A stretch of DNA of 58,808 bases, the filler included, from Rhizaria sp. SCN 62-66 (lineage: Eukaryota), in assembly GCA_001724265.1 (NCBI GenBank). It is 2 parts of 2 records of this genome, joined end to end, with 100 filler letters (N's around TTAATTAATTAA, not from the genome) between each part and the next. Parts side by side here need not be neighbours in the genome. Positions count along the whole stretch, not along the records: positions 1 to 29,346 come from MEDY01000379.1; 1 more part is not named here. One strand, written 5' to 3'. Under the pieces are notes generated by a model, which worked only from the letters and a program-made list of their open reading frames with translations, was not told where the DNA came from and ran no database searches. The first letter of the stretch is position 1, and each line of letters starts with the position of its first letter. The position numbers were made by a program, and so were the translations under genes. This document shows, piece by piece, positions 6,601-29,446 of this stretch.

Positions 6601-8909
6601 GCGGCGGCGACGGCGGCGCCTACCGCGGCAGCAATTGTGGCGTCTATGTCGCTCAGCAGGCGCCGCTCCGTCTCGGCCACGGCCGCGGCAACCGCGGGTG
6701 CGACGGCCGCAGCCACGGCGGCGGCCACGGCGGCGTGCACGTCGGCCAGCGCGGCGCCCTTGAGCGCGTTGGGGTCGACGGCCGCCGCGGCCACGCGCTG
6801 CTCCAGCGCCGCCACCTGCGTCTGCAGCGCGGCGCGCGCGTCCTGCGCCGCGCCCATCTCGGCTGCCAGCGCGGCCGTTGCGGCGCGCGCGGCGGCGGCC
6901 TCGCGCTCGCGTAGCTCCGCCGCGGCCTCGGCGGCGCGCGCGGCGGCAGCGGCGGCGGCGGCGGCCTCGCGCAGCTGAGCCACTTCCGTGCGGTCCGCAG
7001 CCAGCACTGCCAGCAGCTCCGCGCGCACCGACGCGGCGGCCGCGGCGGCAACCTCGCCCGCGGCTGCAGCGCCCTGTTGCGCGCGCGCCTCGCCCGCGCC
7101 CGCGGCGGCAGCCGCCACGGCCGACACGCGCTCGTGCAGCCGCGCCAGCTGCGTGGTCGCGGCGGCCACCGCGGCGCGCTCGCCCTCAGCGCGCTGCTGC
7201 AGCGCCTCCACCGCCGGCGCCAGCGCCTCGATGCGGCCCCAGCGCGCGGCCCACTTGAGCTCCAGCTCCGCGCGCTGCCGCGCCGCCGCGCTCGCCGCGC
7301 CGGCCATCCCCCCACTGGCGCCGTCAGCGCCCGCGCCCGCCGCGTCGGCGGCCGCGGTGGCGGCCTCGGCAGCCTCTACGGCCTCGCAGAGCAGGTCCAC
7401 GCGCCGACCGAGCGCTCGCACGGCCACGACCGCGGGCGCGGCAAACTCACGCACGCGCGCCTCGACGCGGGCCAGCTCCGGCGCAGTCACCAGGTCGGCC
7501 GCGGCGCCGCGCGCCTCCATGGCGGCCACCTGCCGCTGCAGCGCGGCGTGCGCGCGCGCGGCGGCCTCAGCGCGCGCGCGGCCCGCGGCGGCCTCAGCAC
7601 GCAACTCGCCGACGCGCGCCTCGAGCGCGGCCTCGTGCTCGGCGCGCGCCGCCGCCCAGGCCTTGCCAGCCCCCGCGGCGACCTCCTCCTGCGTTGCCGC
7701 CAGCGCTTCGAGCGCGCGCGCCAGCAGGCCCTCGAGCGCGTCCCCGCGCCGGGCCGCGGCTGCGGAGCCCGCCGCGAGCGTGGCCTTGAGCGCGGCGACC
7801 TCGGCGTCCACCGTGGCGCCCATGTCGGCCACCTGGTCGTGCAGCGCAGACAGCGCCGCCGTCATCAGCGCGCCCTTGACGCCGGAGCCGCCGCCCGCGC
7901 CGTCACTACCACCGCCAACGTCTGCGCCGCCGCCGCTGCTGCTGACGCCGCCGCGGCGCGCGAGAGCGGCGGAGAGCTCCTGCGCGACGGTCTCGAGCTC
8001 GGCGAGGCGCTGCGAATGCTCCTCGACGCGCGCGCGCAACGCCGCAGCCGCGGAGCGCGCCTCGCCGTGCGCGGCCGCGGCGGCGGCCTGCGCGGCCAGG
8101 CGCGCCTCCTGCTCCGCGAGCGTCCAGCGCTGCTCAGCGAGGTCCACGCGCTCGCCCAGGCGCGCCTCGGAGCGCTCGAGTGCGGCCGACAGGTGCGCGA
8201 GCGTGTCGGCGCGGACCTTGCGCGACATCTGGTGCATCGCGGACACGCTCTGCAGCAGCTCCGCGCGCATCTTGCCCTCAAAGGCCGCAAACAGCGGGTC
8301 GCCCACATGCGCCGCTGCCGCGGGCATAGCGGACGCCGGGGGCGCGCCGGGCCCCGCGAAGGAGCTGTTGTTGTTGTTGGGCGCGGATGACTGGCGCGCG
8401 GGCCGGGCTGTGGCGCGCTGCATGGCGCTGGCGGAGAGTGCGGCCAGCGCCGCGCCGGACGCGCCGGGCGCGGGCGAGAGCACGGCGTGCGGGGGGCCCG
8501 CGGAGGGCATGAAGGAGAGCGAAGGTGACGCGGCCGACGCTGACGCAGACGCGGAGACGGAAGCGGATGACGAGGACGCGTGCGCGGCATAAGATCCAGT
8601 GCCATGCACGTGAGGCGGCACGGCTGGACCTGCGGGGCCCGCGGAGCCGACGGGCAAGTGGCTGGCGTGGCCGTTGCTGCTGCTGGCGCTGTGGTTGCTG
8701 TACCCAGAGCGGCTGGCGGCGTGGGGCGCTGCGGCGCGCGGGTCGAAGCCGCCAGCGGCGCCGTTATAAGAGATGTTGACAGTAGGGCCGGGCAGATACG
8801 GCATGTTGGCACCTGTGTTCATTGGGTTGTAGCTCGAATCACCGTAGTAGCCACCACTGCCTCGCAGGGACGCGTTGCCGCTGCTGCGAGGGTCTTCAAG
8901 GCGCTCCAT
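3699..8909 (-). CDS. Large Ala-rich predicted coiled-coil protein (~1736 aa) with disordered ends, function unknown
   Basis: Single 5.2-kb ORF bounded by AT-rich DNA. First ATG is 8909 (MERLEDPRSS...). Heptad-like E/L/A/R-rich central region. A T-rich tract plus CAACAG acceptor at 8958-8980 suggests an upstream exon or leader. Stop is TAA. Confidence 0.8.
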   Translation of the reverse strand: MERLEDPRSSGNASLRGSGGYYGDSSYNPMNTGANMPYLPGPTVNISYNGAAGGFDPRAAAPHAASRSGYSNHSASSSNGHASHLPVGSAGPAGPAVPPHVHGTGSYAAHASSSSASVSASASASAASPSLSFMPSAGPPHAVLSPAPGASGAALAALSASAMQRATARPARQSSAPNNNNSSFAGPGAPPASAMPAAAAHVGDPLFAAFEGKMRAELLQSVSAMHQMSRKVRADTLAHLSAALERSEARLGERVDLAEQRWTLAEQEARLAAQAAAAAAHGEARSAAAALRARVEEHSQRLAELETVAQELSAALARRGGVSSSGGGADVGGGSDGAGGGSGVKGALMTAALSALHDQVADMGATVDAEVAALKATLAAGSAAAARRGDALEGLLARALEALAATQEEVAAGAGKAWAAARAEHEAALEARVGELRAEAAAGRARAEAAARAHAALQRQVAAMEARGAAADLVTAPELARVEARVREFAAPAVVAVRALGRRVDLLCEAVEAAEAATAAADAAGAGADGASGGMAGAASAAARQRAELELKWAARWGRIEALAPAVEALQQRAEGERAAVAAATTQLARLHERVSAVAAAAAGAGEARAQQGAAAAGEVAAAAAASVRAELLAVLAADRTEVAQLREAAAAAAAAARAAEAAAELREREAAAARAATAALAAEMGAAQDARAALQTQVAALEQRVAAAAVDPNALKGAALADVHAAVAAAVAAAVAPAVAAAVAETERRLLSDIDATIAAAVGAAVAAARADQGLGAGAAAATLASAPATARGENAASTAASAAAAAAAASGTAAADDAAAAHGAAAASQDAAAVSQRAASACEAAAAAAARDAAVASAAATAAAAAAQDALARVAASSTAAPTAAAASSADNTNDDAAVAARAAAAAQAAAGAASEAAAAAGAEVAAERRRREALEAALAMLIARQEEAAAALAAESRRVDELVSAANSANGAHTASAPAPAPAAASAAAASAQTVSAEAVSALDARVDEALSVATGATDEASAAAEDAAAALVAADNALATADGARDAAAVAATAAARAEAGLAALCARVDSLSSSLSVVSATQQQQQQMQQQQAGALEAPLSARRRGADTVHPRVASPSPRGDRTRSAASVGAGSGSAPTTPARSRSATPVPRDPPAAHATHAGAAHTAHTAAAAAQLTPGNNSGGAGYEQQTPRSRRVALAAAAAAAPALALAPAPAPALGSASAALVSARLAFSGSGSGGPGQSQQGHSGRQSGGLSGGVVGAESGGDASQLLMLGGDEDVLSDVELFSDRSRAPATAVPGFVPALSGLDAVAQAYVRKQRRATAGSAADAAAAAAPAAAAMTPNAGAATPATQEQPGGQLTGSFPRPQLAAAASGPAAAAAVASAAVATAATAAGDHTSSDEFGFSRRGATANNNSNNNNNADAYSGSLHDESVLSLGFGDTPRGPALPALAPLPTNLTTAASAAHVGAASAVHGQTGPTGYTGQIGQGGPAALSGDVSLHSVSPQDLSAYAYSGAASSQNLSPGRSQGAVGGGRTQGQTQAQTQHAQAHQAQHSQVAQLSQMSQLSQGSSGASSLAARMAAAAAAGAGQQQAPAPASGQSLAPASVPGHGGPSGGQTDEEDEYEAMTDFSAFNMSIDDALPTDRRGRKDADSGAGAAVAASVPATTSGGSGSGSGGSGGARPSMLGARAGLVAVAVPVLSAAATSAGGMNAVGEDTTFDVDGMTLDSP

Positions 8910-10114
8910 TGGAAGCTCACTAACTTTGGCAGTCTGACTCAGAGGATAAAGCAAGGTCTGTTGAAAATAAATAAAAAAATGTTATGTAAACTAAAGTATT
9001 ATTAAAGTATTAGCGGCCAACTCGCCTGTGGTCGGTCATATCACGTTAATAATTTGAATATTGAGCAACGCTTCTGGGTCCTCTCTTTGGAGACCAACGG
9101 CTAGAAAGCAAGCAAAGTCACCTAAAATGTATTATGTTCGAGTAAAAAACGGTATAAATGGCTTTAAAATACGGCGATTCTTAGATATGATATGTTTTGT
9201 TATGATTTCTGTATTATTTCAATATATTGGACGCATCAAAAAACGTATTTGCGTTAAAATCTTGGTCGTGTCACTGATTAGTCGTTGCAAACGACATCTA
9301 AACATGCGCCATTGAATCTACAACTCGAGCAATATCTCTGAAATTTAACTTAGGACTACCCCGCTATGCTTGATGCGTTCCGGCTGTGTTGATTCATGGG
9401 AATTTACGGCAGCATGGAACATAACCACAGTGATATTGCTCCAAATGTCGTTGTACAGTTGTTGATGGTAATCGTAACTGTCTTCGAAAAATGCTACATT
9501 AAGAGCAATTATGGGTGACAAAAAGAGGACTGTTGCTCAACCATCACGTTATCAGCTAGAGTGCATTGTGTTTGTTTGACCACGCAGTGGATTTAATATT
9601 GTCTTTCTGTCTAGCTCTGAACGTACGTACGTACGTATCGAGCTTACGGTTACGATAGATCCCTCATGCTACCATAAACAATGCGATTGACACTCGACGA
9701 GCACAGAGCTCTAAAGCAATAACCATAATAAAAATACAAAATTTTATATCTCACACAATGTGAGGCGTCATGTAAAGATTGTACTGTATATTCCTGCAAT
9801 TTCATTTCTTGAATCGGCAATCGACTGCAACGTGTCTCAGGGACTGTGCGCACTAGCTGAAGTCGCTGATCTTGAATGTGTTCATCTTTGTTTAAACGGT
9901 ATCTTTCATGATAATAACAAAAATCAGTTTATTATTCAAGTTGTTTGTGTATAATATCTTATATTCGCTTTCATGATTCGACATTCAGCCTTGTTCTGAC
10001 TCATTTCTGAAAAGTCAACTTAAAGTCCACACTGTTGCCGGAAGCACCTCCACGAACAGTCCTCGTTAGTCCTTGGAATGGTGCGATACACGCGCTAAAC
10101 CTTGTGGACTTTGT

Positions 10115-12529
10115 ATGTCTGACGCTAATTTACCAAGCGCTTTGCCGCTCCCATCCCCGCGCGCGCCGACGCGGCCAAGTCGACTCGATGTGTAGCTGCT
10201 CTCAACATCCCGCAGCGAGGGACCCTCGGATGCGGAGGATCCGCTCGTCAGCGCGCGCAGCAACGCGAGCTTTTACGGCAACAATGAGCTCGCGCTGGGC
10301 GTATTTGCACAGCAGCGCGGCCAGCACGGCGCTATGATACCGATGGCCGCGCTGAACCGCGAGCAGCTGGGCGGCTCTCCGCTCTCGCTCTCGCTCTCTC
10401 TGTCCCCGCCTGGGCCGCGCTCGCCAGCCAACGATGTGGAAAACCGCAACAGTGACAACAACGTTGCTGATGCGAGCAACGCTTTAGATGGTTCCTCTCT
10501 TGCAGCTGCACAGAGTGCGCGGGCAGAGCGGCTGTGCGGCTACGTCGCGGCGGTCCTCGCGGTGCTGGTGCTAACGCTCGTCACAGCTGTTGCGCTCGCC
10601 GTAAACGGTGAACTCGGCGGCAGTGAAAGCAGTGGCAGCGGCAGGCCACGTCCAACTTGGCCTATTGCTAATGCGCGCGCACACTCCGCGCTAAAGCCCG
10701 CACCTGGAGTGAATCGCAGCAACGAAACATAGACTGCATTAATCAACGCAACTGCAGTCGCGGCGTCGTCCGCGGGCACCGCACTATCTGTGCACAGCTC
10801 AAATGGTTTGACCTCCGCTCGCGCCCACAATAGCACCCCAAGCCATAGCAATAGCAGGTGCAGAAGCAATGCGACTGCTGCCTCCCGGTCTGCAACTGCG
10901 CCGTGTGCAGCTGCGCCGACGTGGGCAGGCGAGCTGCTCACGGTCACGCCGCACGACCGCCTGGTTGTCGACTGCAGGCCGCTCACAGGCACCGCGCCGG
11001 CCACCGGCAGAGCGGCTTTTGCATCCAGCACACGAGGCGGCAGAAACGCGCACGCTTTCGGGCGCGGTCGTAGCGCGACCATGGACGCGGCGGTGCCCGC
11101 CACTGGCACGAGCGCGGGCGCTGGCACTGGCGCAAGCGTGAGCGAGATGCTTTCCGAAAAAATCGCATGTGTGTTGCGCACCCGCGGTAACAGTACTGTA
11201 CCTACAGCCTTAGACGCTACCCTGGCTGGAACTGCGCCGACAGCTGCAGGGGCAGCAAGTGACTTTCCGTGGCTTGTGATGCTGCTGCCGCCGCGCGGCG
11301 CGCTCTGGCGCTGCGGCTGGGGCAAGGCCGGTGCTTCCTTCTTTGCCGGCGGCTCAGGCTTTTACGCCGCTAGTGCCGCCGCCTCAGACGAAGCTGCGAC
11401 CGCCGCGGCAGGATATTTCGGCGGCGTCGGCCGCGCGGCGCGCCTGGACGAGGCTCGCTGCCGCGGCGGGCTCGCGCTGCCCACGGCGTCACTTACCAGC
11501 GCCACCTCTTAGTCCGGTACTTGCGCTGGCATAACTGACGTTGTTGTTGAGGCGGGATACGTGCGCGGCTACAGTGGCGTGGTGGGCAACAAACATCACC
11601 GCTCGCGCGGCCGCCACACCAGGAGCGCGACTGGATCGGCAGCTGCGCCAGCGCCCGTTGCGCCCGCAGCACACAGTCTTGCAATGCCGTTTGCGGTGTC
11701 CACAGCCGCAGCAGCAGCGCGCAACGGTGGGACTGCGGGCGAGCGCGTTTGCCGCGCTGCCTACGGCGGCGCACTGGCATCGCTGGCGCTGGGCACAGAC
11801 GCCACCGGGCTGCGCCGCGCGCTTGCAGCCTTCCGGCACGAGAACGGCCATGACACAGCCGCATGCAGTAACTCCGGCAATACTACAAGAGTCGACCCTC
11901 GCTTTGTTGCAATTGCCAACGAGCCCCGCGCCGACAGCGACGTCAGCGACGGCCCTGACTGGAGCTGGCTCGACGGGCCCGGCGCAGCGCCCGGCGCAGC
12001 GCCCGGCGCGGCGCCCGGCGCGACGGCTGGCACGGCGCCCGGCGCGACGGCTGGCGCGGCGCCCGTCGCAACCACGGGCGCGTCAGCGAGCTCTGTTGTG
12101 CTGCGCGCGTCGCTGCGGGAGCCGCCGGAGCGAGTTTCGGACTGGAGCAGCTTCGTCAATGGTCTTACGCTCAACAGTGACCGCGCGCGCTTCGCTGACC
12201 TGAACGACGGCGTTGCCGCTGCCGGTGCGGCGGAGCGAACTAGTGTGAGCAAGGAGGACGAGCAACGCGTGCGCGCATTTGAGCTTTTTTTGCGCGACAA
12301 TACAGACACGCGTAACTCGCAAGGCAGCCGCGATAGCAGCAGTAGCAGTGACAATGTGGTGCTCATGGGGTACCCGCGGTGGGAATCGCTCGGCCCGGCA
12401 CCCGCCGAACACGAGGAGGGATGGATGGAGCAGCGGCCTAATGCAGTTTCCGACGACGAGGGACTCTGGACTTTTGTGGTGACCGGTTATGGAACGATCA
12501 AGGGTGCGCTGCGACTTGAAGCGACTTGA
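10115..12529 (+). CDS. 804-codon reading frame for a putative type II membrane protein with three in-frame TAG codons (10193, 10730, 11510). Recoded or edited gene, or a pseudogene
   Basis: ORF-track pieces 10334-10732, 10790-11512 and 11561-12529 are all in the same frame, each separated only by a single TAG. The frame extends upstream through another TAG to ATG 10115 (MSDANLPSALPLPSPRAPTRPSRLDV*LLSTS...). GC-rich coding-like composition spans this interval. Hydrophobic TM segment YVAAVLAVLVLTLVTAVALAV at about 10540-10603. Confidence 0.7.
11978..12064 (+). repeat. Degenerate 12-bp tandem repeat (CCCGGCGCRGCG-like, about 7 units) encoding PGAA/PGAT/AGTA
   Basis: Read directly: cccggcgcagcg cccggcgcagcg cccggcgcggcg cccggcgcgacg gctggcacggcg cccggcgcgacg gctggcgcggcg. 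The repeat preserves frame. Confidence 0.85.
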
Positions 12530-12940
12530 AGCGTTGGAAGTGAGGACTCTGGATGTGGTGCACGTATCAGACCATATAACAGGCCATTAAGTGGAAATAC
12601 GCAAAAATAATGATAATATTGCTATTAACTCAGTGTAAATACAATAGATGCAAGATATTTCTAGTTGAAAAGTCGATATAGCCTTACTACAACAAGAAAT
12701 ATAATATGAGTGACTGTGGTTGTGGTGGACGGTGTCCTGGCCAGGCTTCTCCAGGCAAGCAAAACTGACGATGCGCAGAACGTTTGAAACCCCTAACTTC
12801 GTCGTCATTCTGTTATGCCGTTGTAATCCTATATTAAAATCGTGTTATATTTTATTATATTATTTGTCGCACTCACTGAACACTCACTTTCCTCTTGTGT
12901 ATGGTCCTTTGAAAACTCGCACTTGCTCTGCAGCCAACCT

Positions 12941-14170
12941 ATGTCCAACCGGCGCGGCATTAAGGGCATTAAGGGCACTCACAACGAGTTCACGGCCCGT
13001 CGTGGTCTGCGCGAGGATGGGCAGCCAGATTTGATGGCGACGAGCGCGCTGGAGCTCTCCGAGAAGACTGTCCCGAAGGTCTCCCGCCGCAAGATGAAGG
13101 AGATTGTCGATGGTGCTGGCGCGATCCCGCTGGCCATGTGGGACTTCGACCAGTGCGACCCGCGCAAGTGCTCGGGTCGTCGTCTTGAGCGTTTCGGACT
13201 GCTACGCTCGCTGCGCGTGACGCAGAAGTTCCCCGGCCTGATCCTGACGCCCGTCGGCAAGTCCATCGTGTCGCCGCAGGACAAGCCCGTGGTGGAGCAG
13301 ATGGGCGTGGCCGTCGTCGACTGCTCCTGGGCCAAGCTCGACGACGTGCCCTTCGCCAAGATCCGTGGCAAGCACGAGCGTCTGCTGCCCTTCCTCTACG
13401 CGGCGAACCCGATCAACTTCGGCCGGCCGTACAAGCTCACGTGCGCGGAGGCGATCGCGGCCGCGCTGCAGATCTGCGGCTTCCCGCTTGAGGCGCGCCT
13501 CGTCATGAGCAAGTTCACCTGGGGCGAGGGCTTCTTCGCCATCAACCAGGAGCTCTTCGAGCGCTACGCGCGCTGCGCCGACTCCGCCGCCGTGCTGGCC
13601 GAGCAGCAGCGCATCGTGGCGAAGCTGGACAGCGTCAAGGCCGCTAAGGCCGCGGCCAAAGAGCGCCGCGAGGACGCCGGGCTCGGCGCGGGCCGCGTCT
13701 TCGAGCGCGACGAGCTCGGCGGCGACAGCGAGGGCCGCGGCGCGGCTGAGGACGACGAGGAGGCCCCCGAGGCCGATGGCGGCGACGACGAGGACTGGAG
13801 CGGCGTGCTGAACTTCTGCGCCGCCAAGTGGGTCAAGGGCAAGGACGACGACGACGACGACGACTGCGACGAGGATGACGACGAGGACGAAGACTGCTGT
13901 GACGAGGACGGCGACGAGGACGAAGATGAAGAGGATGAAGACGAAGATGAAGACGAGGACGAGGACGAGGATGAAGAGGAGGAAGAAGAGGAGGTGCGCA
14001 AGCCTGGCGGCAAGTACATCATCCCCAAGTCCGTGCTTAAGGGTCTGTCGCCGCAGGAGCGCGAAAAGCTCATCAAGAAGATCGAGGCCCGCAACGCGCG
14101 CAAGGACGCCGCTGACGCCAAGCTCGCCCGCGGGCTCGCGCGCAAGCTCGCCAAGACCAAGATCGAGTGA
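12941..14170 (+). CDS. TSR3: 18S rRNA aminocarboxypropyltransferase Tsr3 (~409 aa) with a long acidic tract
   Basis: Motifs LAMWDFDQCDPRKCSGRRL, VSPQDK, GVAVVDCSWAKL, RLLPFLYAANPINFGRPYKLTCAEAIAAAL and FTWGEGFFAINQELFERY are diagnostic. ATG 12941 follows AT-rich DNA. D/E run at about 13843-13992. Stop is TGA. Confidence 0.96.
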   Translation: MSNRRGIKGIKGTHNEFTARRGLREDGQPDLMATSALELSEKTVPKVSRRKMKEIVDGAGAIPLAMWDFDQCDPRKCSGRRLERFGLLRSLRVTQKFPGLILTPVGKSIVSPQDKPVVEQMGVAVVDCSWAKLDDVPFAKIRGKHERLLPFLYAANPINFGRPYKLTCAEAIAAALQICGFPLEARLVMSKFTWGEGFFAINQELFERYARCADSAAVLAEQQRIVAKLDSVKAAKAAAKERREDAGLGAGRVFERDELGGDSEGRGAAEDDEEAPEADGGDDEDWSGVLNFCAAKWVKGKDDDDDDDCDEDDDEDEDCCDEDGDEDEDEEDEDEDEDEDEDEDEEEEEEEVRKPGGKYIIPKSVLKGLSPQEREKLIKKIEARNARKDAADAKLARGLARKLAKTKIE

Positions 14171-14674
14171 GCACGAAGTTGAGACAAACCTGAATGCTGC
14201 GTGCGCTACGGCCTTGAAAATGTTGAACATGTGAACTATGTAACGAGTCTCTAGCTGCGCGTCGACCCTCAATGACAGCTGGTGATGTTGCTGTATTGTT
14301 TGCAGGCCATAAACATATGTTGGTCTGATACATTGACTTATCAACTCTCTCATGAATAAACACTCTTATGACTGAATACTAAGAAAAACCGTATCTCCTA
14401 TCTCATATTTGAATCGAGTTGTGTATTATTGATGTCAAGAATCGCGCATGAAAGCGCCCTCCCTAATCTTTCAAGTTAGTGCTGAAGGTTACTTCGATGT
14501 GTGTAATTGATGTTATCAAAGGTATAAGGAAAAACAAAATCCGCAATCACTTCGCAAATAACGTTGAAATTTCACGGATTGTGTTAAGACTTGACTCGGT
14601 GTAAACCAAAAAGTCAAGTAAGTGTGAAGGTTTTCTTTAAAGTTGCTTCTTACATGCAACTATGGGGTTTGTGC

Positions 14675-17600
14675 TTAGTAGCCCATGATGTCGCTGAGCC
14701 CAGAGAGGCCGGCGAGCACGGTTGTGCCGGGCACGAAGACGCCGTTGGTGGGTGTCGACATAACCGTCACCGTGTCAGCGAAGCGCGAGAGCAGCGTGGA
14801 CGCCGCGGCCGAAGTCGCCGCAGTGGTGGTGCCAGTGGCGCTGGCGCTGTCGACGAGGGACAGCAGGTCGGCGTTCTCCGTGCGGAAGCGCTCCATGGGG
14901 AGCACGGAGGCCATGGCGGCCTGGGAGGTGTCGACCAGGCCCTGCACAAAGGTGCCCGCCACGTTGGCCTGTGCAGCGTCCATCCCTGAGAAGACGGACG
15001 AGAAGGACGCGAAAGGCGTGAAGGTGCTGGTGCTGCTCGGCGTGACGGTGATGGGCAGCCCGCCGGAGCTGGTCGACGACGAGGTTGCCGCGGAGCTCCC
15101 GGAGCTGGAGCTGGAGCTCGGGGTGGTGGTGCCACTGGTGGTGCCCGTATTGGTGTTGGTCATCTGCGTCGGCAGCGCGAAGAGGCTCGCCAGCGGGTCC
15201 GTGACAGTGGACGTGGAGCCCGTGGTGCTGCCGATGCCGCTAAAGAGGCTGCTGAACGGGTTCGTGACGGTGTCCGTGCTCGTGCCAAACAGCCCCGCAA
15301 AGGGCGAGGTCACGGTGCTGGCCGCGGTGCTGCCAGTCGAGGACGTGGTCGAGCCCGCGGCGTTGGTGAGCGAGCTGAACAGGTCCGTGAACGGCGTCGT
15401 CGTCGTCGTCGCCGCCGTGCCCGTGGTCGAGCCCGCGGTTGAGGTCGCCGAGTTGGCCGCAGTGGCGATGGGGTCAAACAGGCCAGCGAAGGGCGAGGTG
15501 GTCGACGTGGCAGTCGTGCCGGAGGTCGAAGCCGCGCTGGTGAAGGGGTCAAAGAGACTCGACAGCGGCGATGTCGCGCTACTCGTCGTTGTCCCAGTGG
15601 TCGGCGTACCGGTGGTGGTGCCGGTAAGCGCGTTGAAGAGTCCGGAGAACTGCTGCGTGCGGTAGTGGCGGTGGCGCTCGCGCAGGCCCATGGGCAAGAT
15701 GGACGTGATGTTGCTGTTGGCAATGTTGCTGGGCAGCAGCGCGCCGAGGTTGTTCTCCAGGTTCGTGGCCGAGGTGCCCAGTCCGGTCGAGGTCTCGGAC
15801 ACGGTTCCCATCGCGTCACTGAGTGAGCCCGCGAGACATGTGAGCTTGTCGCCGGTGGCGCAGGCCTGCGTGCCGTCCATGACCTGGCCCGCGGAGCAGG
15901 CGACACGGCACGTGTTGAGGCACGACGCGCCGCTGGAGACGGACTGCGCGGCATTGATGCCGACGTTAGCACCCTCGGACGCGCCCGCCTGCAGCAGCGG
16001 CATCATGGCCTGCGCCGTGGAGGGCGTGAGCTGCATCAGCGGCAGCGGCGTGGGCAGCGAGCCGATGTTGGGCATGAACGAACTCATCAATCCGGGGTCC
16101 GAGATGAGGCCCGTGGGCGTGTTGGGTACCTGCACCGCGGTGCCCAGCGACGGCAGCGTGGGCCCGGGCAGGTTCTCCAGCCCCAAATTCGTGCCTGCGT
16201 CGCTGAAGGATGACACCATGCCCTCGATGTTGTTGAGGCACGACGCGTAGCACGCAGAGTTCATGCACAGCAGGTCGTTGAGCTGGCTGGGGAAGGAGCC
16301 AAAGCTAGACAGCCCCTGCGACGGCGAAAAAGCCGTGCCCGCAATCGACTCGAGCGGCTTGAGCAGCGCGCTGCCCGTGGAAGATGTGGTGCCCGACGAG
16401 CTGGTGCCGGAGAGCAAACTCGATATCCCCGACGTGGGCTCGAGCAACACGTCCACCAGCGAGGCCAGCGTGCGGAAGCCGCTCGTGGTTGTCGCGGGCG
16501 TCGCGGCCGCGCTGGTACTTGTGCTCGAGGTCGTCGTGGTGCCAGAGCTCAGCATCGTGAGCGGCAGGATCAGGTTGAACGGCGTGGCAAACGCGTCCGT
16601 CGCCGTCGTCGCCGCAGTGCCCGTGCTGGTGCCTGTGGCCGCCGACGTGACGCCGGGAAGGCTCGTGCCCAGCATCGCGTTCGAGGCCTGGCGCACGGCG
16701 TCCAAGAACGCGTTGCTCGTGGTCGTTGCAGTGGTTGCCGCGGCAGCTGTGGGCAAGGCTGCGGCGTTGGCGGCCACGGAGGAGGCGGCGGCGGTCGGCG
16801 CAGCGGCGGTGGCGCTCGCTAGGCCCGTGAGCGAGGACGTAGGCAGCAGCGTGTTCAGGTCCGCCGCAGTCACGCCAGAGGTGAGCGCGGGGAGAGTAGT
16901 GCCGGTGAGCGACGGAATAAGGCTGCCGATCGAAGGGACGGAGGTGAGGCCGGTGAGCGAGGGCAGCACGCCGCTGCTAAGCCCCGTGGTGGTGCCCGTC
17001 AGCAACGAGCCGACGCCGTTGGCGCCCGTGGTCGCCTGCGCGAGGTTGTTGGCGGCGACAGTACCAGCGTCGTTCAGCGTTGCAGTAGCTTGCTGCGCGC
17101 CCGTGGCCAGACCGCCCAGATTGGCGAGATTAGCGTTAGCCGCGTTCGCGGTGACGCCAAGGTTGCCGGCCAGTCCGTTGATGCCGGTGGCTGCGTTGGA
17201 AAGCGAACCCAGGTTGCCGGCCGCAGCGACCAGGTTCGAGTTGGCGCCCTCAACAAGGCCGCCCGTGCTGAGCAGGCCTGTCGAGGCCTGCGCCAGTCCG
17301 TTAGCGTTGGCGCCGGAGAGAGAGAGCGAGTTGGCGGCGGCGTTGCCTAGGTTGGTCAGCGCGCCCGACTGCGCAGTCAAGCCGGTGCCCAGGTTGCTGA
17401 ACCCGGCGGTCGCGCCCGTCGCACCGCTGGTCAGTGTGGAGCCGAGTCCCGACGCGCTGGCGGTCTGCGCCGAGATGGTGTCGGCCGCGCGGTTGCCTAG
17501 GTTGGCCGCGCCCAGCGCGTTGTTGCCCAGGCCGCTGGTCAACTGCATCATCTGCTCCGCCAGCGTCGAGCCTGTCGTCGTCGCTGCGGTCGTCGCCGTG

Positions 17601-20600
17601 GTGCCCGTCGCGGCCATCGTCGTGGCGCGGCGCACGAGCGTGTCGAAGACGCCCGCCACGGCGGCGCGGTGACCGCCGCGCGCGGTGAGCGCGAAGGGCA
17701 GCACCACCGCCGAGGGCACGAGCCCGCCGAGACCCGCGAGACCGGCGAGCCCCGTGCTAGCGGTGGTGCTGCCCACCGAGACGGGGTTCGCGCCCTGGCC
17801 GCCGATGGGCGCAAGCGTGGTGCCCGTTGTCGTGCTTGTGGTGCGGCCGCCCAGCGCGTTGCTAATCGCGTTGCTAATGCTGTTGGAGACCTCCTCGATC
17901 GCAGTCGCGTTCGACAGCGCGCGCAGCGCCGACTCGACGCCCGTGGCGTTGGCGCCCGTCAGCGAGCCGCCCGCGGCCTCGAGGAACGAGCCCGCCGTGC
18001 CAGGCGCCACCGTCGTGGCAGTTGCCGTGTTGGCCGCGGAGTTGGCCGCGGTGGTTGCCGCGGTGCTGGCGGCAGTCGTCGCGCCCGCGCCCGAGGTGAG
18101 GTTGGTGAGCGCGCCGAAGAGCGGCAGCGAGCCCAGCGAGCCCGTCGAGTCGCGGCTCGCGCCCAGCGCAGCGGCAAAGTCGGAAACGGAAAAGAAGCCG
18201 CCGTCGGTGAAGCCCGGCAGACGCAGCCCGCTCGTCGCGGTGCTCGTGCCGGTACCCGTGGCGGTGCCGGCAACCGTGTTGGCGGCGTTCGCGGCCGCGG
18301 TGCCCGCCGCCGACACGGCAGTCACGGGCGAGGCGGCCGTGCTCGTGGTTCCGGCGGTGCTCGCGGTCCCGAGGCGGCCGCCGAAGAGCGCGTTGGTGGC
18401 CGAGGCAATGCCGTTGACGAAGTCCTCGATGTTGAGCGAGGAGCCTGCGGCCGTGGCCTCGAGGATGTGCGCGCGCCGGTTGCGGCCGAAGACGCCCAGC
18501 GGCGTCACGACCGTGGGCAGCGCCGGCAGCGCGGCGGCCGCGAACTCCGGCGTGGGCTGCGCGGCCGCGGCCGTGCTGGGGTTGAGCTGCACGAGCGTGT
18601 TGATGAAGCCGACCATGCGCGTCTCGTCGGCGCCCGAGCAGCAACCGCGCCAGCACGTCTCCGTGGGCGTCGCCTCGCCCGCCGCGGGTGCCGTCGTCAC
18701 CGCGGTGGGGCAGTTAACGAAGCACTGCATGCACGCGTCCGACGGCATCTCCATGCCAGCCGTGCTGGTGGTGGCGCCCGTCGCCGTTGTTGTCGTGCTC
18801 GTGGCGGCGTTGGTGGCGGCAACGGGCTGCAGGATTGGCAGCGACTGCAGCGACGCGAGCGCGGGCACAGTGTAGCTGAAGCGCTCGCTGCTCACCGTCA
18901 CGCCGGGCTGCTCCGCCAGCTCGTACGAGAAGGAGAAGGTCACCGCGTCGCCCGCGCTCGCGCGCAGCCCGCGCGCTTCGTAGGTCGCGCCCGCGCGCGT
19001 CATCTGGACGTGGAAGCGTGCCTCGTCGTTGACCGCGTAGTGCAGCACGGCCCAGGACAGCGTCGCGGCCGTCTGCGTGCGCACCGTCGGGTCGGTCGCC
19101 GAGACCGAGCCCGGCTGCGTGGCCCACAGCAGCACGTCGATCCCGCTCTCGGCCGTCGCCACGGAGCTGGGCGACGCCAGCGACGGCCCCGTCGACGCCG
19201 TGGGCACGGTCGGCACGACGGGCACCGCAGGCACAGTTGGCGCCGTCGCCACGCCGGGCAGAGTCGACGTGCCCGCGGCGGCAGCGGCGGCGGCCGCGGC
19301 GGCCGCGGTCGCCGCAGTGTTGGCCGCGGTGTTGGCGGCGCTGGTGGCGCTGCTAACGGCGGCGGGCGCGGCGGGCGTGACGCGCGCAACGATGTTGGTC
19401 GCGACGGCGAAGACGTCGGTGCCGATGGGCGAGATCGTCGTACCCGCGGCCGTGGTGGTGGCCGTCGCCAGGGGGGTCGCGGGCGACCACTTCTGCACCG
19501 CGCCCGCCGTGGACGCCGTGCCCGCCGCGTCGCGCGCGCACACGGCTTGGAAGAAGAGCGCGCGGCCCGACGCCGAGGCCGGCAGCGGCACTGAGGGCGC
19601 GTGGAAGACCGACGCCGACACGCGCTCAGTCAGGTGGCGCGACAGCGGCGCGTAGCCGGCCGCGGTCGTGGCGCCCAGCGCGGCGATGGCCTCGTCGCTC
19701 AGCGAGGCGGGAGCCGACGCGTTTGCGGGGCCCGCGCGCGCGTGCACGTCGCAGCGCGCAACGGAGCTGTCGGCCGTGTCGATGAGCACGCGCGCGGCCG
19801 CCGCGGACCGCGCCTGCACCTGGTACGCCCACAGCGTCGAGGTCAGCGGGGTCGCCGTCGCAGTCGTCCCAGTCGTCCCAGTCGTCCCTGCAGTCGTCCC
19901 TGCAGTCGTCCCTGCCCCAGCAGCGGTGGTGGTGCCGGTGGCCGAGGGGAAGAGCGTGGCCAGCGCAGGGATCGGCGTGTCGAAGATCGACTCGAGCGCG
20001 GGCGCGCCGCTCGCTGCAGCCGCGGCAGTCGCGGGCGTGGTCGTGGCGCTGCTTGCCGAGGACGCGGTCGCGGCGGTCGCGCCCGCGGCGGCCTCCGGCG
20101 CAAGCCACTCGACGGGGTCCGTCTGGAGCACGCTGCCGTCGCGGCGCTGCACGCTGAAGAGAAAGCGTAGCCCGCGCGCGACGCGGCCCGCGCCGGCGTC
20201 GAGCGTGGTGGTGAAGTAGGCTCCGCCCGCGGCCGCCAGCGCGACTGAGCGCGCGTCGCGCAGCACGCCCGCGCCGTCGAGCAGCGAGTACGTGAGGTCC
20301 ACCGCGGCGCAGCACGTCGCCGCGTCCTGCGGACCTGGCAGCGCCAGCGCCGTCGCGGGCAGCGCGGGCGCGTCCGCCGCGGCAGCAGGGACTGCGACGA
20401 ACTCGACGCGCGCGAAGCGAGCCGCGGCGGAGGTGGCGGCGTTCGGGAAGGCCTCAGCGAGCGGCTGCACGCGGTGGTAGACGGCGGTGCTCGAGCCCGG
20501 CAGCGAGAGCAGACGGTACGAGGTCGTCGACGCCGCGGCCGCCGCAGCCTCGACAGTCGCGACCGCGGGCGTCGCCACGGTCGTCGTCGGGACGGTCGGT

Positions 20601-21184
20601 GTGATGGCCGTGGTGGGAGGCGTAGCGTTCGGAGTCGCGGCCGTGGGCGTGGTCTCAGTCGGCGCCGCCACCGCGGGCGTCGCGGCCGGAGTCGTGACAG
20701 TGGGTGTGGTGACGGTCGGCATTGTCACAGTCGGCAGGGTCGGCGTGGTGACGGTGGGTACAGTCGGCGTGGTGACGGTGGGCACAGTCGGCGTGGTGAC
20801 GGTGGGCACAGTCGGCGTGGTGACGGTGGGTACAGTCGGCGTGGTGACGGTGTTGGTGTTAGTGGCCGTGCCGGTCGTCGCGCTGAGCCCGGTGCCCGCG
20901 CTGCTGAGGAGCGAGTTGAGCAGCGAGCTCGGGTCTGGCGCGGCCGCGGACGTCGAGCCCGTGGTCGTGGTGGGCACAGTCGGCACAGTCGGGGCAGTCG
21001 GGACGGAGGGGACGGTCGGCGTCGTTGTCGTAGTTGTGGTGGGGAAACCAGGGAGTGTGGGCAGCGAAGGGAAAGTCGCAGTGGTGGCTGCAGCAGGGAC
21101 GCAGAAGAGCGCGGCCAAACTAGAGACGGCCAGTAGCAGCAGTATGCTGCGCAGCCGTGGAGCCCGGGGGCGGTGTCGTTGCAT
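14675..21184 (-). CDS. Secreted 2169-aa Thr/Ala/Ser-rich (mucin-like) protein with signal peptide, CBM56-like module(s) and two Cys-rich segments
   Basis: N-terminus MQRHRPRAPRLRSILLLLAVSSLAALFCVPAAA is a basic plus hydrophobic signal peptide. Intronless ORF with PTVTT repeats and Cys clusters CMQCFVNC..CWRGCC and CMNSACYASC..CLNTCRVAC..C..C. Stop is TAA. Confidence 0.85.
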   Translation of the reverse strand: MQRHRPRAPRLRSILLLLAVSSLAALFCVPAAATTATFPSLPTLPGFPTTTTTTTPTVPSVPTAPTVPTVPTTTTGSTSAAAPDPSSLLNSLLSSAGTGLSATTGTATNTNTVTTPTVPTVTTPTVPTVTTPTVPTVTTPTVPTVTTPTLPTVTMPTVTTPTVTTPAATPAVAAPTETTPTAATPNATPPTTAITPTVPTTTVATPAVATVEAAAAAASTTSYRLLSLPGSSTAVYHRVQPLAEAFPNAATSAAARFARVEFVAVPAAAADAPALPATALALPGPQDAATCCAAVDLTYSLLDGAGVLRDARSVALAAAGGAYFTTTLDAGAGRVARGLRFLFSVQRRDGSVLQTDPVEWLAPEAAAGATAATASSASSATTTPATAAAAASGAPALESIFDTPIPALATLFPSATGTTTAAGAGTTAGTTAGTTGTTGTTATATPLTSTLWAYQVQARSAAAARVLIDTADSSVARCDVHARAGPANASAPASLSDEAIAALGATTAAGYAPLSRHLTERVSASVFHAPSVPLPASASGRALFFQAVCARDAAGTASTAGAVQKWSPATPLATATTTAAGTTISPIGTDVFAVATNIVARVTPAAPAAVSSATSAANTAANTAATAAAAAAAAAAAGTSTLPGVATAPTVPAVPVVPTVPTASTGPSLASPSSVATAESGIDVLLWATQPGSVSATDPTVRTQTAATLSWAVLHYAVNDEARFHVQMTRAGATYEARGLRASAGDAVTFSFSYELAEQPGVTVSSERFSYTVPALASLQSLPILQPVAATNAATSTTTTATGATTSTAGMEMPSDACMQCFVNCPTAVTTAPAAGEATPTETCWRGCCSGADETRMVGFINTLVQLNPSTAAAAQPTPEFAAAALPALPTVVTPLGVFGRNRRAHILEATAAGSSLNIEDFVNGIASATNALFGGRLGTASTAGTTSTAASPVTAVSAAGTAAANAANTVAGTATGTGTSTATSGLRLPGFTDGGFFSVSDFAAALGASRDSTGSLGSLPLFGALTNLTSGAGATTAASTAATTAANSAANTATATTVAPGTAGSFLEAAGGSLTGANATGVESALRALSNATAIEEVSNSISNAISNALGGRTTSTTTGTTLAPIGGQGANPVSVGSTTASTGLAGLAGLGGLVPSAVVLPFALTARGGHRAAVAGVFDTLVRRATTMAATGTTATTAATTTGSTLAEQMMQLTSGLGNNALGAANLGNRAADTISAQTASASGLGSTLTSGATGATAGFSNLGTGLTAQSGALTNLGNAAANSLSLSGANANGLAQASTGLLSTGGLVEGANSNLVAAAGNLGSLSNAATGINGLAGNLGVTANAANANLANLGGLATGAQQATATLNDAGTVAANNLAQATTGANGVGSLLTGTTTGLSSGVLPSLTGLTSVPSIGSLIPSLTGTTLPALTSGVTAADLNTLLPTSSLTGLASATAAAPTAAASSVAANAAALPTAAAATTATTTSNAFLDAVRQASNAMLGTSLPGVTSAATGTSTGTAATTATDAFATPFNLILPLTMLSSGTTTTSSTSTSAAATPATTTSGFRTLASLVDVLLEPTSGISSLLSGTSSSGTTSSTGSALLKPLESIAGTAFSPSQGLSSFGSFPSQLNDLLCMNSACYASCLNNIEGMVSSFSDAGTNLGLENLPGPTLPSLGTAVQVPNTPTGLISDPGLMSSFMPNIGSLPTPLPLMQLTPSTAQAMMPLLQAGASEGANVGINAAQSVSSGASCLNTCRVACSAGQVMDGTQACATGDKLTCLAGSLSDAMGTVSETSTGLGTSATNLENNLGALLPSNIANSNITSILPMGLRERHRHYRTQQFSGLFNALTGTTTGTPTTGTTTSSATSPLSSLFDPFTSAASTSGTTATSTTSPFAGLFDPIATAANSATSTAGSTTGTAATTTTTPFTDLFSSLTNAAGSTTSSTGSTAASTVTSPFAGLFGTSTDTVTNPFSSLFSGIGSTTGSTSTVTDPLASLFALPTQMTNTNTGTTSGTTTPSSSSSSGSSAATSSSTSSGGLPITVTPSSTSTFTPFASFSSVFSGMDAAQANVAGTFVQGLVDTSQAAMASVLPMERFRTENADLLSLVDSASATGTTTAATSAAASTLLSRFADTVTVMSTPTNGVFVPGTTVLAGLSGLSDIMGY
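20694..20850 (-). repeat. 24-bp coding tandem repeat (TVTTPTVP units) in the secreted protein
   Basis: The plus-strand unit gtcggcgtggtgacggtgggcaca is repeated about 5 times with silent variants. Confidence 0.9.
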
Positions 21185-21736
21185 CGCGCGGGCTGCGCAG
21201 GTTGTTGCGGTGTGTTATGTTGTTGCGAAGATCAGAGAGAATAATAAAAGATATAGACGTATGAGAGACTCAAAACCAGAAAGTATGTTATTATACAGAA
21301 GTGATTTAATTGCTTCTTTAAGTTATTAATTGAGGGGGCTCGCTAGAAAGACTATGATTCAAGTCAGAATGTGCAACACAGAGTCGTGGTTGGATCTTTA
21401 AGTCAACTTGAAGAAGATTGTTTTAGCTCAAGAACGCAAACAAATGCAGTGAGATTTCAACACAAGAGTAAATACTCGCGGATATTTGATCAGAACTATA
21501 CAAACGTGACAATGTACGATGCGGAGCCTGACAAAACCCTCTGCATCTTGATCCTCGTCATTCGCTATCCTGAGAGCGGCAACAACAACGGGCGTGACAA
21601 CGGGGGGCAACAAATAATGACCGAAAGGGCCCAGAGACAAAAGAAGACGTACTCATGATAAAATAGGACTGGAATTGTGCTTCTTTATAGACGAAAATCG
21701 AGAAATAAAACAAAAGTCGTGATTATTATTCGTTCA

Positions 21737-24242: not shown

Positions 24243-24728
24243 GCGATATGGTGTCTGGTGGACGAAAGCGCGGAGACTGTGAGAGCGTCGGTGCCGCAGT
24301 GTGTGCGACACGTCAGGAGAAGGAGTGGGGAAAGTGTTGTACGAACTGTGTGAGAAAAAATATTATGTGTGCATATAAACGATAAGATTTTGTATCCTGC
24401 TACCATTGTTACATTGATAACGACTGAGTGTGCGTAAATATATGGCCTGCCACAGATGTGACCTTTCGGGGTTCAGTGAAGTTGTGGCGGCCACGAGCGA
24501 TCGAAGAGTGAATAACTAGCAGCGCAAAAACGCGAGGATATCTCGACAACTGCTCGACAAGGCCGGCAATGAGGCACGGATCATAATTTTCTATTTAGTT
24601 TTATTTAATTTATGACAATGATACTTTGAGTTTGCGACAATATCTTCCGCAAGCATCCGTTTTAAAGGACCCTGACCAAAGCGATTTTGCTGACAATGCC
24701 CTGCCCCTCCTTGTTTCCCCAGACCCGC

Positions 24729-25210
24729 ATGGCCGATAACAACAACTTTTGCCAGAGTCTGTTTGCAATGGTGTCTGACAATCTTGAATCCATCCAGCAG
24801 ATTCTTTACAACGCCAACCTCAACGGTCAGAGTACGTCCCACCCCTTTTTCTCTCCCTCGCTTCCCCCTGCCTTTGTCTGCCCTCCGACATGTCCCCCTT
24901 TGCATTCGCCGCTTCAGTCGTCTCACATCGCCCCCATTGCTCTTCCCTTGCGGATCCCCCGCTTTCGCGCGTAGCGACGGAGCCCGGCGCGGCGAGCGAC
25001 GCCTCCGGAGGCGGGCTCTCGGCCACGGCGTCGTCGGCCATGCTGCTGCTGCTCGCGCTCGCCACCGTCGTGCTCATGGCGCGCAAGACCAAGAAGCGCC
25101 AGCCGCTGCCCAAGGGCGCACGCGCGCCAGGCGCCGGTGGCCCCGGCGGCAACGACGGCAACGACTTCGGCGGGCCCGGCCGCCAGGACCCCCCTGGCCC
25201 CGTCCTCTAA
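24729..25210 (+). CDS. Small single-pass membrane protein (~112 aa), exons 24729-24831 and 24975-25210. Architecture loosely resembles SMIM14/DUF2615
   Basis: Donor GTACGT (24832) and acceptor CGTAG (24974) join MADNNNFCQSLFAMVSDNLESIQQILYNANLNGQ in frame to TTEPG...MLLLLALATVVLMARKTKKR...QDPPGPVL*. TM segment followed by a basic cluster and a Pro/Gly tail. Family call is weak. Confidence 0.65.
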
Positions 25211-26554
25211 GCCGCCCGGCCGACCGAGCCCGCGCCGCCCCGCCGGACGCGTCACCGTGCGCGCGCGCGGGAACCTGGCGCTGCGGCCCCCCGGCGCGCG
25301 CGGTCGCGCCCGGACGTGGCCGCCGCCGCCCACTGACTATAACTAGTACCTTTGCCATCCATAGACCCCTTATTTTGATCTTTTTTACTTTTCTGCCTTG
25401 TTTTCCCGCTTTGAGCGGCTGTTGGGCGCCCTGCACGGCCCGGCTCCTCCCCGCTGCGCGTGCCCCTGTGGCCGCGCGCGGACCTATTATCACCCAATAA
25501 AGCCCTGATTTTTCTTTACAAGTCTATATCTGTGTCAGTGTACGTCGTTGGCGCGAGAGAGACGCGCCAGCACTGCAGGACTGCTGTGAGCATAAGATTG
25601 TCTGCGAGCCGTTGACAGGGGAGAGGTTGATGGATCCGAAAGTAGGATACATCAACCGCTTAACGCGTGTAAAGATAGCTTTATCTTGTGCATCAAGCAA
25701 AAGCGCTCTTTTTCTGTCAGAAAAGAGAATAATATTTTGATCCAAGCAAGTATTTGAACACGAAAATTGAAAGTCCGTACTGGATGAAACGACTCCCAGT
25801 CAACGGCGACCCACGGTCGGGCAAGGCCTCTCACTGTTCCTAAACAGCCCTTCTCACGTGTTGAAGTCATCTCAAATGCTCCTCGGACGCGTGTGCTCTA
25901 AGACAGCCTGCTTGAAAGTTCGCTGTCTATGAACTCTTTTATTGAAATATGAAAACTAAATGCGCTCCTAATGTGTTGGTGGACGACAGAAGTTGCCTCA
26001 ACTCAGGGGTCGTCGTCTCGTGCCAAACTCGTCTGGACATGCCACACGTTACAAACGCCATGGAGACAGCAACCATAGCATTTGCAAAATTGACTTGTTA
26101 GGCACTAATTCCGACCGTGGGACATCATTCTTCTATGTGGGGAACGCGCATGTACAAAACTCGGACGCAGAGAAGACATAATCCGTGGGCACCTGCTTCT
26201 AGGATTTCTTTCCCTCCAAGCACACGATCTGGACACCCCCCTAGTATGCAAGCATGGTGCCTTGTAAACACGAGAACTCGCCACAGGCGTGTTAGTTGCA
26301 ACATTATGTGACCGTCTTATTGTTGCCACATGAAGTCAAGGGCAACTTCACTGCCCAGCACACTTCCTGAAACTAACCTTCCTCGTCCCATCTACCCCTT
26401 TGATATGTCGCTTTCGATAGCCCTGAACCCACTTCCCTCGCTCGTGCTCGACCAGACAGCGCCTCTGTAGTAACAGAGTGACCGGCCGGTTCTTTCTCCC
26501 CCGCGTGCCCCCTCGCTTTGCGGTGGTTTCCCCCCGCTCGTGGCCCGGCCTCCC

Positions 26555-28458: not shown

Positions 28459-28496
<38 letters not shown>

Positions 28497-29346
28497 CCGA
28501 GGACGACGACGACGCGGCCGGCGCCGCCGCGGGCGCACACCTCGCCTTCGGCGGGCTGGGAGGGCTCGACGGCCCCGGCGGCCCAGCGGGCGGGCCCCAG
28601 TCTGACTTCTCCCTCCTCAGTGGCGGCGCCGGCGCTGGCGTGGGCGGCCCCGGCGCGGGCGGCTATGTCGGCACCGACGGGCTCGTGTACCCCGCGTCCT
28701 ACGCCGCGGGCGCCTTCGGGCGCGCGCGCGAGGCCGCCGCGGCCGCTGACGGCGCCGCCACGACTTACCACGGCGGCGTCGCGCTGACGAGCGTGGCGGC
28801 CGCGCGCCACGCGCAGCAGATGGCCGGGCTGCGCGCCGCCGCGGCCGCTGCGCCCGCGGCCTCGGGCGGCGCGCTCAACATGGCCACCTTCTTCACCGAT
28901 TTCGACAGCTTCGGCTCCCATCACGGCCACGGCCACCACGGCGCCGCCGCTGCGGGGGCGCACGCGGGCGCTGGTGCCGCCACCGGGGCGGGCGCGGGCG
29001 CGGGGGCCGGCGGCGCGCACCACGCGGGCTCCGGCCCCGGCTCTACCGCGACGGCGACGGCGGCTGCTGCGGGCGCCGGGGCGGGCGCGGGCGTGGGCGC
29101 GGACGACGTGGACTTCGAGGCGCTGGCGGCGCGGTACCCCACGCTGCTGATCGATAACGTGCGCCGGCGCGCGCAGCTGCACGCAGCCGTGGACCGCGGG
29201 AACCCCTTCGCGCAGCTCTACGAGCTGGCGCAGACGCCCGCCGTCAAGCGGCGCGTGCTGGCGCTGCTCGCGCGCGGGGACCTGGACCGCGTCGCCAAGG
29301 CCGAGGCCGTCGCTGAGGTCCTGCGCTCCGGCGCCGCAGACTCGGC
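26555..29346 (+). CDS. zf-4CXXC_R1 zinc-finger nuclear protein with a Q/A/Y-rich N-terminus, His-Gly and poly-Asp tracts, truncated by an assembly gap
   Basis: CHQCKSRR...C...CRKKFCGHCLKKFY...WTCPSCRRICCCAACRRR (about 28067-28277) has the Cys spacing of zf-4CXXC_R1. Basic NLS-like KKKKAKK. The frame is open up to the N-run. Confidence 0.85.
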
Positions 29347-29446
29347 NNNNNNNNNNNNNNNNNNNNNNNNNNNNNNNNNNNNNNNNNNNNTTAATTAATT
29401 AANNNNNNNNNNNNNNNNNNNNNNNNNNNNNNNNNNNNNNNNNNNN
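29347..29446. other. Artificial contig-joining linker: 44 N + TTAATTAATTAA + 44 N (100 nt)
   Basis: Symmetric N-runs flank a palindromic 12-mer that puts stops in all six frames, a standard pseudo-scaffold spacer. Confidence 0.97.

Follow-up and report, generated by a model that had tools for sequence, protein, structure and literature searches.

Does TAG still end translation in a gene that it interrupts three times, or is it read there as a codon? The question is raised by a reading frame on the plus strand at positions 10115-12529 of a stretch of DNA from Rhizaria sp. SCN 62-66, 58.8 kb long, which we analysed as a whole and refer to as the window; it is eukaryotic DNA from wastewater and bioreactor metagenomes. 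The sequence-only reading of the window had described this frame as a single long one broken by TAG codons alone, and had proposed that UAG might be recoded, read through or edited in it. The translation bears out the description: the frame consists of 804 codons followed by TGA, the only internal stops are three TAGs, and there is no change of frame. On balance we put the probability that this is a transcribed, recently disabled gene at about one half, while a tolerated UAG, whether edited, read through or used as sense at very low frequency, is a distinctly less probable and tentative explanation. The elements of the locus are listed below; the records named there belong to four read sets (X3, X4, X5 and X7), all of which were examined as consensus contigs with a depth of ~3-19 and with minor variants lost.

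10115-12529, plus strand: frame of an orphan single-pass membrane protein with three TAG interruptions (translation, six-frame scoring).
10027-12495, plus strand: cover by contigs of the cDNA library X5, a transcript-like footprint that ends in AT-rich flanks.
10078-10101, plus strand: upstream open reading frame (ORF) of seven codons, ATG to TAA, within the covered leader (read from the sequence).
10193-10195, plus strand: TAG1, codon 27, context RLDV*LLST; bridged unaltered by X3 record 2, X4 record 9 and X5 record 17.
10535-10609, plus strand: single membrane span (Kyte-Doolittle, 19-residue windows).
10730-10732, plus strand: TAG2, codon 206, 40 residues past the membrane span, context SNET*TALI; bridged unaltered by X3 record 3, X4 record 9 and X5 record 19.
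11510-11512, plus strand: TAG3, codon 466, placed by prediction in the 9-nt loop of a local hairpin, context SATS*SGTC; bridged unaltered by X3 record 4, X4 record 12 and record 27 of the polyA-RNA set X7.
11684-12529, plus strand: longest ATG-begun ORF under the standard code, 281 aa from M524; it includes the conserved domain and has neither membrane span nor signal.
11977-12069, plus strand: 12-bp tandem repeat encoding low complexity of the GAAPGA type (Tandem Repeats Finder).
12095-12499, plus strand: conserved C-terminal domain, residues 661-795, 3' of all three TAGs (match to protein P0123).

The target frame is, or was, coding, because it is the best of the six frames in all 15 scored 300-nt windows of 10115-12529 and because its last ~140 residues match P0123. 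Its lead in every scored window also means that no frameshift is hidden within it. The other five frames contain 16, 30, 13, 8 and 23 stops, the last three counts being those of the minus strand. Three stops or fewer occurred in frame 0 in 0.2% of 1500 position-preserving shuffles, which keep the codon-position composition, and in any frame in 0.17% of 600 first-order Markov sequences. The codon-position composition of the target (G1 0.40-0.48, C2 0.33-0.45) is the same as in the neighbouring genes, and the G1/C2 periodicity of these genes is present in segments 2-4, counting the parts between the TAGs as segments; the 26 codons 5' of TAG1 are atypical in their codon-position composition. TAG1 may fall in the leader, as it would if translation begins at M74 or M77; the ATGs of the window yield no consensus for a start-codon context. 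The coding log-odds of the target frame is 0.06, as opposed to 0.37-0.66 in nine neighbours, and the GC content of its third codon positions (GC3) is 0.68, as opposed to 0.74-0.92 in the neighbouring genes; this low GC3 is even along the frame and extends to the conserved C-terminal domain. The idea that the target is the antisense of a minus-strand gene was rejected: no opposite frame is open, and P0123 matches the plus frame.

The three TAGs are genomic, occur in no fewer than two populations and are also found in contigs derived from RNA. X3 is possibly the source data of the window, whereas X4 comes from a separate study and has single-nucleotide polymorphisms (SNPs) of its own, differing from the window at 9247, 11463, 11476 and 12301. 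Base-call error had been named as a concern, and it does not account for the stops: TAG is retained at all three sites in X3 (records 2, 3 and 4) and in X4 (records 9 and 12), and in further ENA assemblies the called proteins P0121 and P0125 stop precisely at TAG2, as P0122 and P0126 do at TAG3. Together these observations rule out sequencing or assembly error as the origin of the TAGs. The strain SNPs inside the frame are one non-synonymous (R450H) and two synonymous, too few to count for constraint.

The suggestion that a transcript should be looked for across the stops led to a positive result, in that RNA-derived contigs exist across the target. X5 contigs bridge TAG1 and TAG2 with no other letter at either site, and in X7, the polyA metatranscriptome of the study that also produced X4, a contig at 11400-11680 bridges an unaltered TAG3. 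The latter carries the same two SNPs as X4; because X7 and X4 share both these SNPs and TAG3, the RNA equals the DNA at TAG3 in that population. X5 has no contig across 11258-11454 or TAG3, and X7 has none across TAG1 or TAG2. We read X5 as RNA from its footprint, its depth being 0 at 8894-9878 and 12637-13424, where the DNA runs X3 and X4 carry on; however, X5 is automatically labelled 'probably DNA', so its status as RNA is uncertain. Depth at the target relative to the neighbouring genes is kept out of the evidence, the read sets having been selected for containing the stretch.

Neither RNA-level change that might have lifted the stops was seen. No A>G mismatch occurs at the TAG adenines in X5 (TAG1, TAG2) or X7 (TAG3), at the resolution of consensus sludge contigs in which minor variants are lost, and no TAG is spliced out, the RNA-derived contigs being collinear across every one of them. 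Introns that remove the TAGs were rejected further on the grounds that none of the listed joints with sides of at least 30 letters crosses a TAG and that the length of such an intron would need to be a multiple of three. A joint from 11250 to 11982 in X3, with a side of 20, was taken as a repeat or foreign match, and an X7 record that links 10328 to 11703 was discarded as a spliced isoform, as its 35 intervening letters occur nowhere in the window. Thus three of the five outcomes that the sequence-only reading had set as fatal to its proposal, namely a lack of transcript, reads with CAG or TGG at the sites, and introns removing the TAGs, were tested and are clearly absent. A fourth, ordinary use of TAG as a terminator, is likewise not indicated, none of the 13 ORF ends in the window being TAG, although this sample is small.

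The protein features described earlier largely hold. One hydrophobic span is found at residues ~141-165 (maximum 2.82), and the 12-bp repeat preserves the frame (period 12, 7.8 copies, 0% indels). The protein does have N-x-S/T sequons (eight), together with 10 Cys and 11 Trp; the enrichment of the seven luminal sequons is not significant (P = 0.10). A HMMER search of 1.84 billion representative proteins returned three proteins, two of which are fragments of the same locus, whereas the third, P0123 (206 aa), is a true homologue. It matches residues 619-795 with 41-48% identity (BLASTP: 41%, E 4e-20; phmmer: 48%, E 6.6e-15) and covers no TAG site. In a tblastn search of the window with P0123 the plus frame of the target is the sole match, and the motifs common to both proteins are VVLRxSLxEPP, WSxFV, RVxAFExFL, VLxGYxRWESL, WMxQRP and GLWxFVVxGYG. 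The locus of P0123 is probably syntenic, in a relative that carries P0003, a relative of the Tsr3 protein encoded next to the target in the window.

Beyond P0123, the family is sparsely represented. The target protein has no Pfam match with an E-value of 1 or less, a structure search of the Protein Atlas gave no usable match (TM 0.28 or less), and AlphaFold2 on the two-sequence alignment of target and P0123 reached a pLDDT of 39.4; the 281-aa ORF from M524 has an ESM Atlas entry with a mean pLDDT of 0.33. The window contains no paralogue of the target. No relatives were found among proteins of 442-1407 aa with query words from the first 500 residues only, among proteins of 362-2000 aa with the C-terminal alignment, or in the genome and viral contig sets, and in the metagenome contig set only the same DNA was matched (L001). 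Aligned homologues had been proposed as a way to see which residue sits at the interruptions, and these searches found none that spans the three TAG sites. Full-text searches of the literature, which did not cover supplementary files, found no description of the organism or the locus.

What TAG means elsewhere in the window bears directly on the question. The sequence-only reading had cautioned that the other genes lack in-frame TAG, and this caution stands: ten TAA- or TGA-delimited frames of solid neighbours contain no TAG in 13,548 codons, and TAG is frequent in the other frames of the same ten genes. By the evidence of these genes, TAG is not a common sense codon. It is also missing from the ends of the ORFs, since the 13 ORF ends of the window (GC3 ~0.85) consist of six TAA and seven TGA; if TAG is assumed to make up 15-20% of stops, the probability of finding none is ~0.05-0.12, in what is a small sample. 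Ten of the 13 ends run straight into AT-rich spacer. Several of the end stops lie in GTRAG-like strings (3291, 14170, 49909 and 58055), and some ends, three of the 13, may be exon ends rather than terminators. The ORF at 26555-29398 is cut by an artificial linker (29347-29446: 44 N, TTAATTAATTAA, 44 N), with which the two contigs of the window are joined; its apparent TAA end is linker and not a terminator. Three further in-frame TAGs, at 2389, 2500 and 50758, stand beside coding sequence and would pass for additional 'sense TAGs' but for the two spliceosomal introns that contain them:

2209-2502: spliceosomal intron of 294 nt (GTACGC...TTTAG) in the mitochondrial-carrier gene; holds the TAGs at 2389 and 2500.
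About 50643-50799: spliceosomal intron of 157 nt (GTAAGT...CACTAAC...CAG) in the gene that starts at 50587; holds the TAG at 50758.

Looking for tRNAs that carry a CUA anticodon, as proposed at the outset, yielded nothing within the window, which holds no tRNA gene of any kind; Rfam has no match in the window either. The 3' contexts of TAG1, TAG2 and TAG3 are CUG, ACU and UCC, none of them shared and none leaky. The 100-nt folds downstream of the three sites are not significant as stimulatory structures (z -0.85, -1.45 and +0.54). Around the sites themselves, the hairpin at TAG3 has a z of -2.62, with four of 200 shuffles folding as well; neither TAG1 nor TAG2 is surrounded by a significant fold.

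Frames broken almost only by TAG are also common here on the antisense side of real genes. In the span 14628-21329 (plus strand), opposite the minus-strand gene at 14675-21184, antisense frames stay open for more than 1000 codons and are broken almost exclusively by TAG (four and six times), the frame at 17673-21329 having 1219 codons and six TAGs. These frames exist because CTA, TTA and TCA are rare codons, and they can mislead any search for 'TAG-only' patterns in this genome.

The explanation that we favour, at the even odds given above, is that the locus would be a genuine gene, lineage-specific and transcribed, whose product is a type II-like membrane protein with a single pass, rich in Ala, Ser and Gly and with a conserved C-terminal domain of ~140 residues. 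Three nonsense substitutions to TAG would have closed its frame in this species, with TAG keeping its standard meaning, which would make the locus a unitary pseudogene of recent origin or, at most, a gene that still yields short products, such as a membrane fragment of 129-132 aa that runs from M74 or M77 as far as TAG2 or the product of the 281-aa C-terminal ORF that begins at M524. TAG appears to terminate here, and the intactness of the rest of the frame suggests that the interruptions are recent. Cases of recoding are much rarer than pseudogenes, and on such priors decay in a pseudogene is the likeliest single reading. Disabling changes are found in a frame homologous to a coding gene (three stops, with P0123 as the homologue), and the GC3 of 0.68 together with the log-odds of 0.06 fits a weakly selected, dispensable gene. 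Furthermore, there is no positive sign of recoding, neither A>G changes nor a tRNA, a readthrough context or downstream structure. The target resembles known transcribed unitary pseudogenes in its premature stops, in a C-terminal part that is homologous elsewhere, in its weak codon bias and in that RNA is still made; unlike them, it has no frameshift and only a single type of stop. RIP-like (repeat-induced point mutation) hypermutation was considered and rejected, as TpA/ApT (0.86) and (CpA+TpG)/(ApC+GpT) (1.34) are both in the range of the neighbours, and CpG decay was rejected at an observed/expected CpG ratio of 1.21.

Several observations weigh against a disabled gene. The usual signs of relaxed constraint are not seen, given that there is no frameshift and only one type of stop. 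On the codon content of the target, nonsense changes make up 1.8-2.8% of substitutions, so three stops imply ~100 substitutions, yet 2.4 kb of sequence contain no frameshift, no TAA and no TGA. Between 46 and 48% of nonsense changes give TAG, and under neutral decay the probability that three of three stops are TAG is ~0.10; the probability of no frameshift is ~0.13 to 0.01 for assumed ratios of frameshift to nonsense rate of 1 to 4. The low GC3 is not a product of decay: it is as low in the conserved domain as elsewhere, and by our arithmetic a drift from a GC3 of ~0.85 would have given ~20 stops. RNA, polyA RNA included, is still present despite a stop at codon 27. Moreover, no TAG terminator is found among the 13 ORFs of the window, small as this sample is. 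Finally, the target hoards the rarest codons of the window (two of six ATA, four of nine TTA and five of 14 CGA, among 14,777 codons), so that, were TAG a sense codon of very low usage, a split of zero TAGs in the neighbours against three in the target would be only mildly unlikely (~0.04-0.09). A disabled gene and a tolerated UAG cannot be told apart on the present data.

If UAG does not end the translation of this message, the full 804-residue protein would be made, either because UAG is a near-unused sense codon or because the three UAGs act as a 'lock' in the genome that editing of the RNA lifts at a life stage outside the sampling; we regard this as a minority possibility, clearly behind the disabled gene. 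One unlikely form of it is that UAG is an extremely rare or barely assigned codon that surfaces in weakly biased genes. This would be consistent with interruptions that are all TAG, without a frameshift and with coding periodicity on both sides of each TAG, with the retention of the TAGs in two populations and in RNA-derived contigs, and with the absence of TAG from all 13 ORF ends, although 13 terminators are few and their probability under ordinary use of TAG is not extreme. The third to half of the rarest A/T-rich codons (ATA, TTA) that the target holds likewise makes the zero-versus-three split tolerable. Precedents exist among eukaryotes, as UAG-only reassignments in which UAA and UGA remain terminators are described in PMC5304391 and reported in PMC11687900: UAG encodes Leu in the rhizarian exLh and Gln in Iotanema spirale (PMC5304391), and phyllopharyngean ciliates are reported to have a code in which only UAG has turned from stop to sense (PMC11687900). 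The target shares with these an in-frame UAG that is also present in RNA, in a window whose 13 ORF ends, few as they are, show UAA and UGA only. However, the counts reported in PMC5304391 for UAG-reassigned nuclear codes are 384 in-frame UAGs in 71 genes and 204 in 126 genes, that is, 1.6-5.4 per gene, whereas the ten neighbours here have none. Widespread in-frame UAG in ordinary genes, the hallmark of a UAG-only code, is not found in the window; neither is a cognate tRNA seen, though the window has no tRNA genes whatever, and no homologue gives an aligned, conserved residue at the TAG sites. Less probable again is that the UAGs in the genome silence the gene until A-to-I editing turns them into UGG in the RNA, at a life stage outside those sampled. 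To our knowledge, restorative A-to-I editing, which yields premature-stop-corrected (PSC) genes, occurs only in Pezizomycotina. The pattern of the target nevertheless works most like the PSC pseudogenes of Sordariomycetes, for which PMC10776026 gives 77 TAG sites in 71 genes: all three premature stops are TAG, there are no frameshifts, and the gene is transcribed while 'broken'. TAG3 lies in the loop of a significantly stable hairpin, the preferred context for editing according to PMC11156358, and a weak codon bias would suit a stage-specific gene. Membership in this group fails on the host, and no editing is visible in the consensus contigs. A hairpin loop is present at only one of the three sites, three sites in one gene exceed the usual number of about one, the RNA-derived contigs carry the unedited TAG at all three sites, and the host is neither a Sordariomycete nor a Pezizomycete as judged from a single marker, Tsr3, which is 57-65% identical to environmental proteins and 52-59% identical to those of yeasts, insects and chytrids, compared to 37-46% for Pezizomycotina entries.

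The other explanations are weaker still, and a small share of the probability falls to none of the readings considered. Leaky termination, in which near-cognate readthrough of a standard-code message would make a little full-length protein, is very improbable. The frame does stay open for 2.4 kb, and it is general background that in several eukaryotes a UAG terminates weakly when the next base is C, which is the case at TAG1. As in the programmed readthrough of viral and cellular leaky UAG or UGA codons, an in-frame stop is followed by further coding sequence; in contrast to these, the target has three stops rather than one, and three in succession would multiply to a negligible yield. The contexts TAG-CTG, TAG-ACT and TAG-TCC differ from one another, and neither a leaky context nor a significant downstream structure is found. 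Just as improbable is an intact allele or haplotype that exists beside the interrupted one, in a heterozygous organism or a population polymorphic for a null, and is hidden by the consensus: contigs drop rare variants and the depth is low, but four runs from three studies, along with the further ENA assemblies, give only TAG at every covered site, and one haplotype would need to carry all three TAGs. Least probable of all is that the upstream two thirds (10115-11509) were never coding, with the C-terminal ORF as the only gene and the open frame resulting from low sequence complexity and high GC content. Local GC-rich sequence often yields long TAG-broken frames, the antisense frame at 17673-21329 being an example; 158 stops in the window have 60 stop-free codons on each side, and the upstream part has no homologue in the protein searches. 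However, such open frames are antisense to real genes, and the target has no open frame on the opposite strand. Frame 0 is best in every scored window, the codon-position composition of segments 2 and 3 is gene-like, the shuffle probability is ~0.002, and the RNA footprint begins at ~10027, upstream of the whole frame.

The surroundings of the locus consist of very GC-rich coding islands (GC3 0.74-0.92) separated by spacers of ~42% GC. The neighbouring genes encode a mitochondrial carrier, Tsr3, an Iki1-like protein, pieces of Nup98 type, a 2169-aa protein with CBM56 and a 5485-aa orphan; neither the Tsr3 matches nor the Atlas assign the organism to a lineage. The 5485-aa orphan is an intronless ORF on the plus strand at 33452-49909 with a strong coding signal, the first 4849 residues of which match no Pfam family at E up to 0.001. 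The Nup98-type pieces on the plus strand at 52954-58055 comprise FG repeats (52954-54378), an autopeptidase domain (55079-56626) and possibly a further part at 57342-58055; between them lie AT-rich gaps, in which a patch at 54601-54900 looks coding, and together they are probably one multi-exon gene. A GC-rich island at 24650-25510 (0.69-0.74) has no frame among the six that scores as coding (best -0.09), and the TAG-free ORF within it, at 24694-25500, has the wrong composition. In the acidic tail of Tsr3 (13366-13461), low-depth X4 contigs show seven closely spaced differences from the window, most of them C/G swaps, which could reflect a strain variant or a foreign low-complexity match.

If the locus is a pseudogene, what befell this orphan gene family of a protist is nothing unusual, and the locus serves mainly as a caution that metagenomic gene callers split such a locus into pieces, here P0121, P0122 and the 281-aa ORF. 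If editing were to restore the frame, this would be restorative stop-codon editing outside the Pezizomycotina, the filamentous ascomycetes. Codon-capture theory predicts that a change of the code passes through an early stage of low usage, which is rarely seen; if UAG is tolerated as sense in this organism, the locus would show a UAG-only code change caught as it begins, at a very early stage of low usage.

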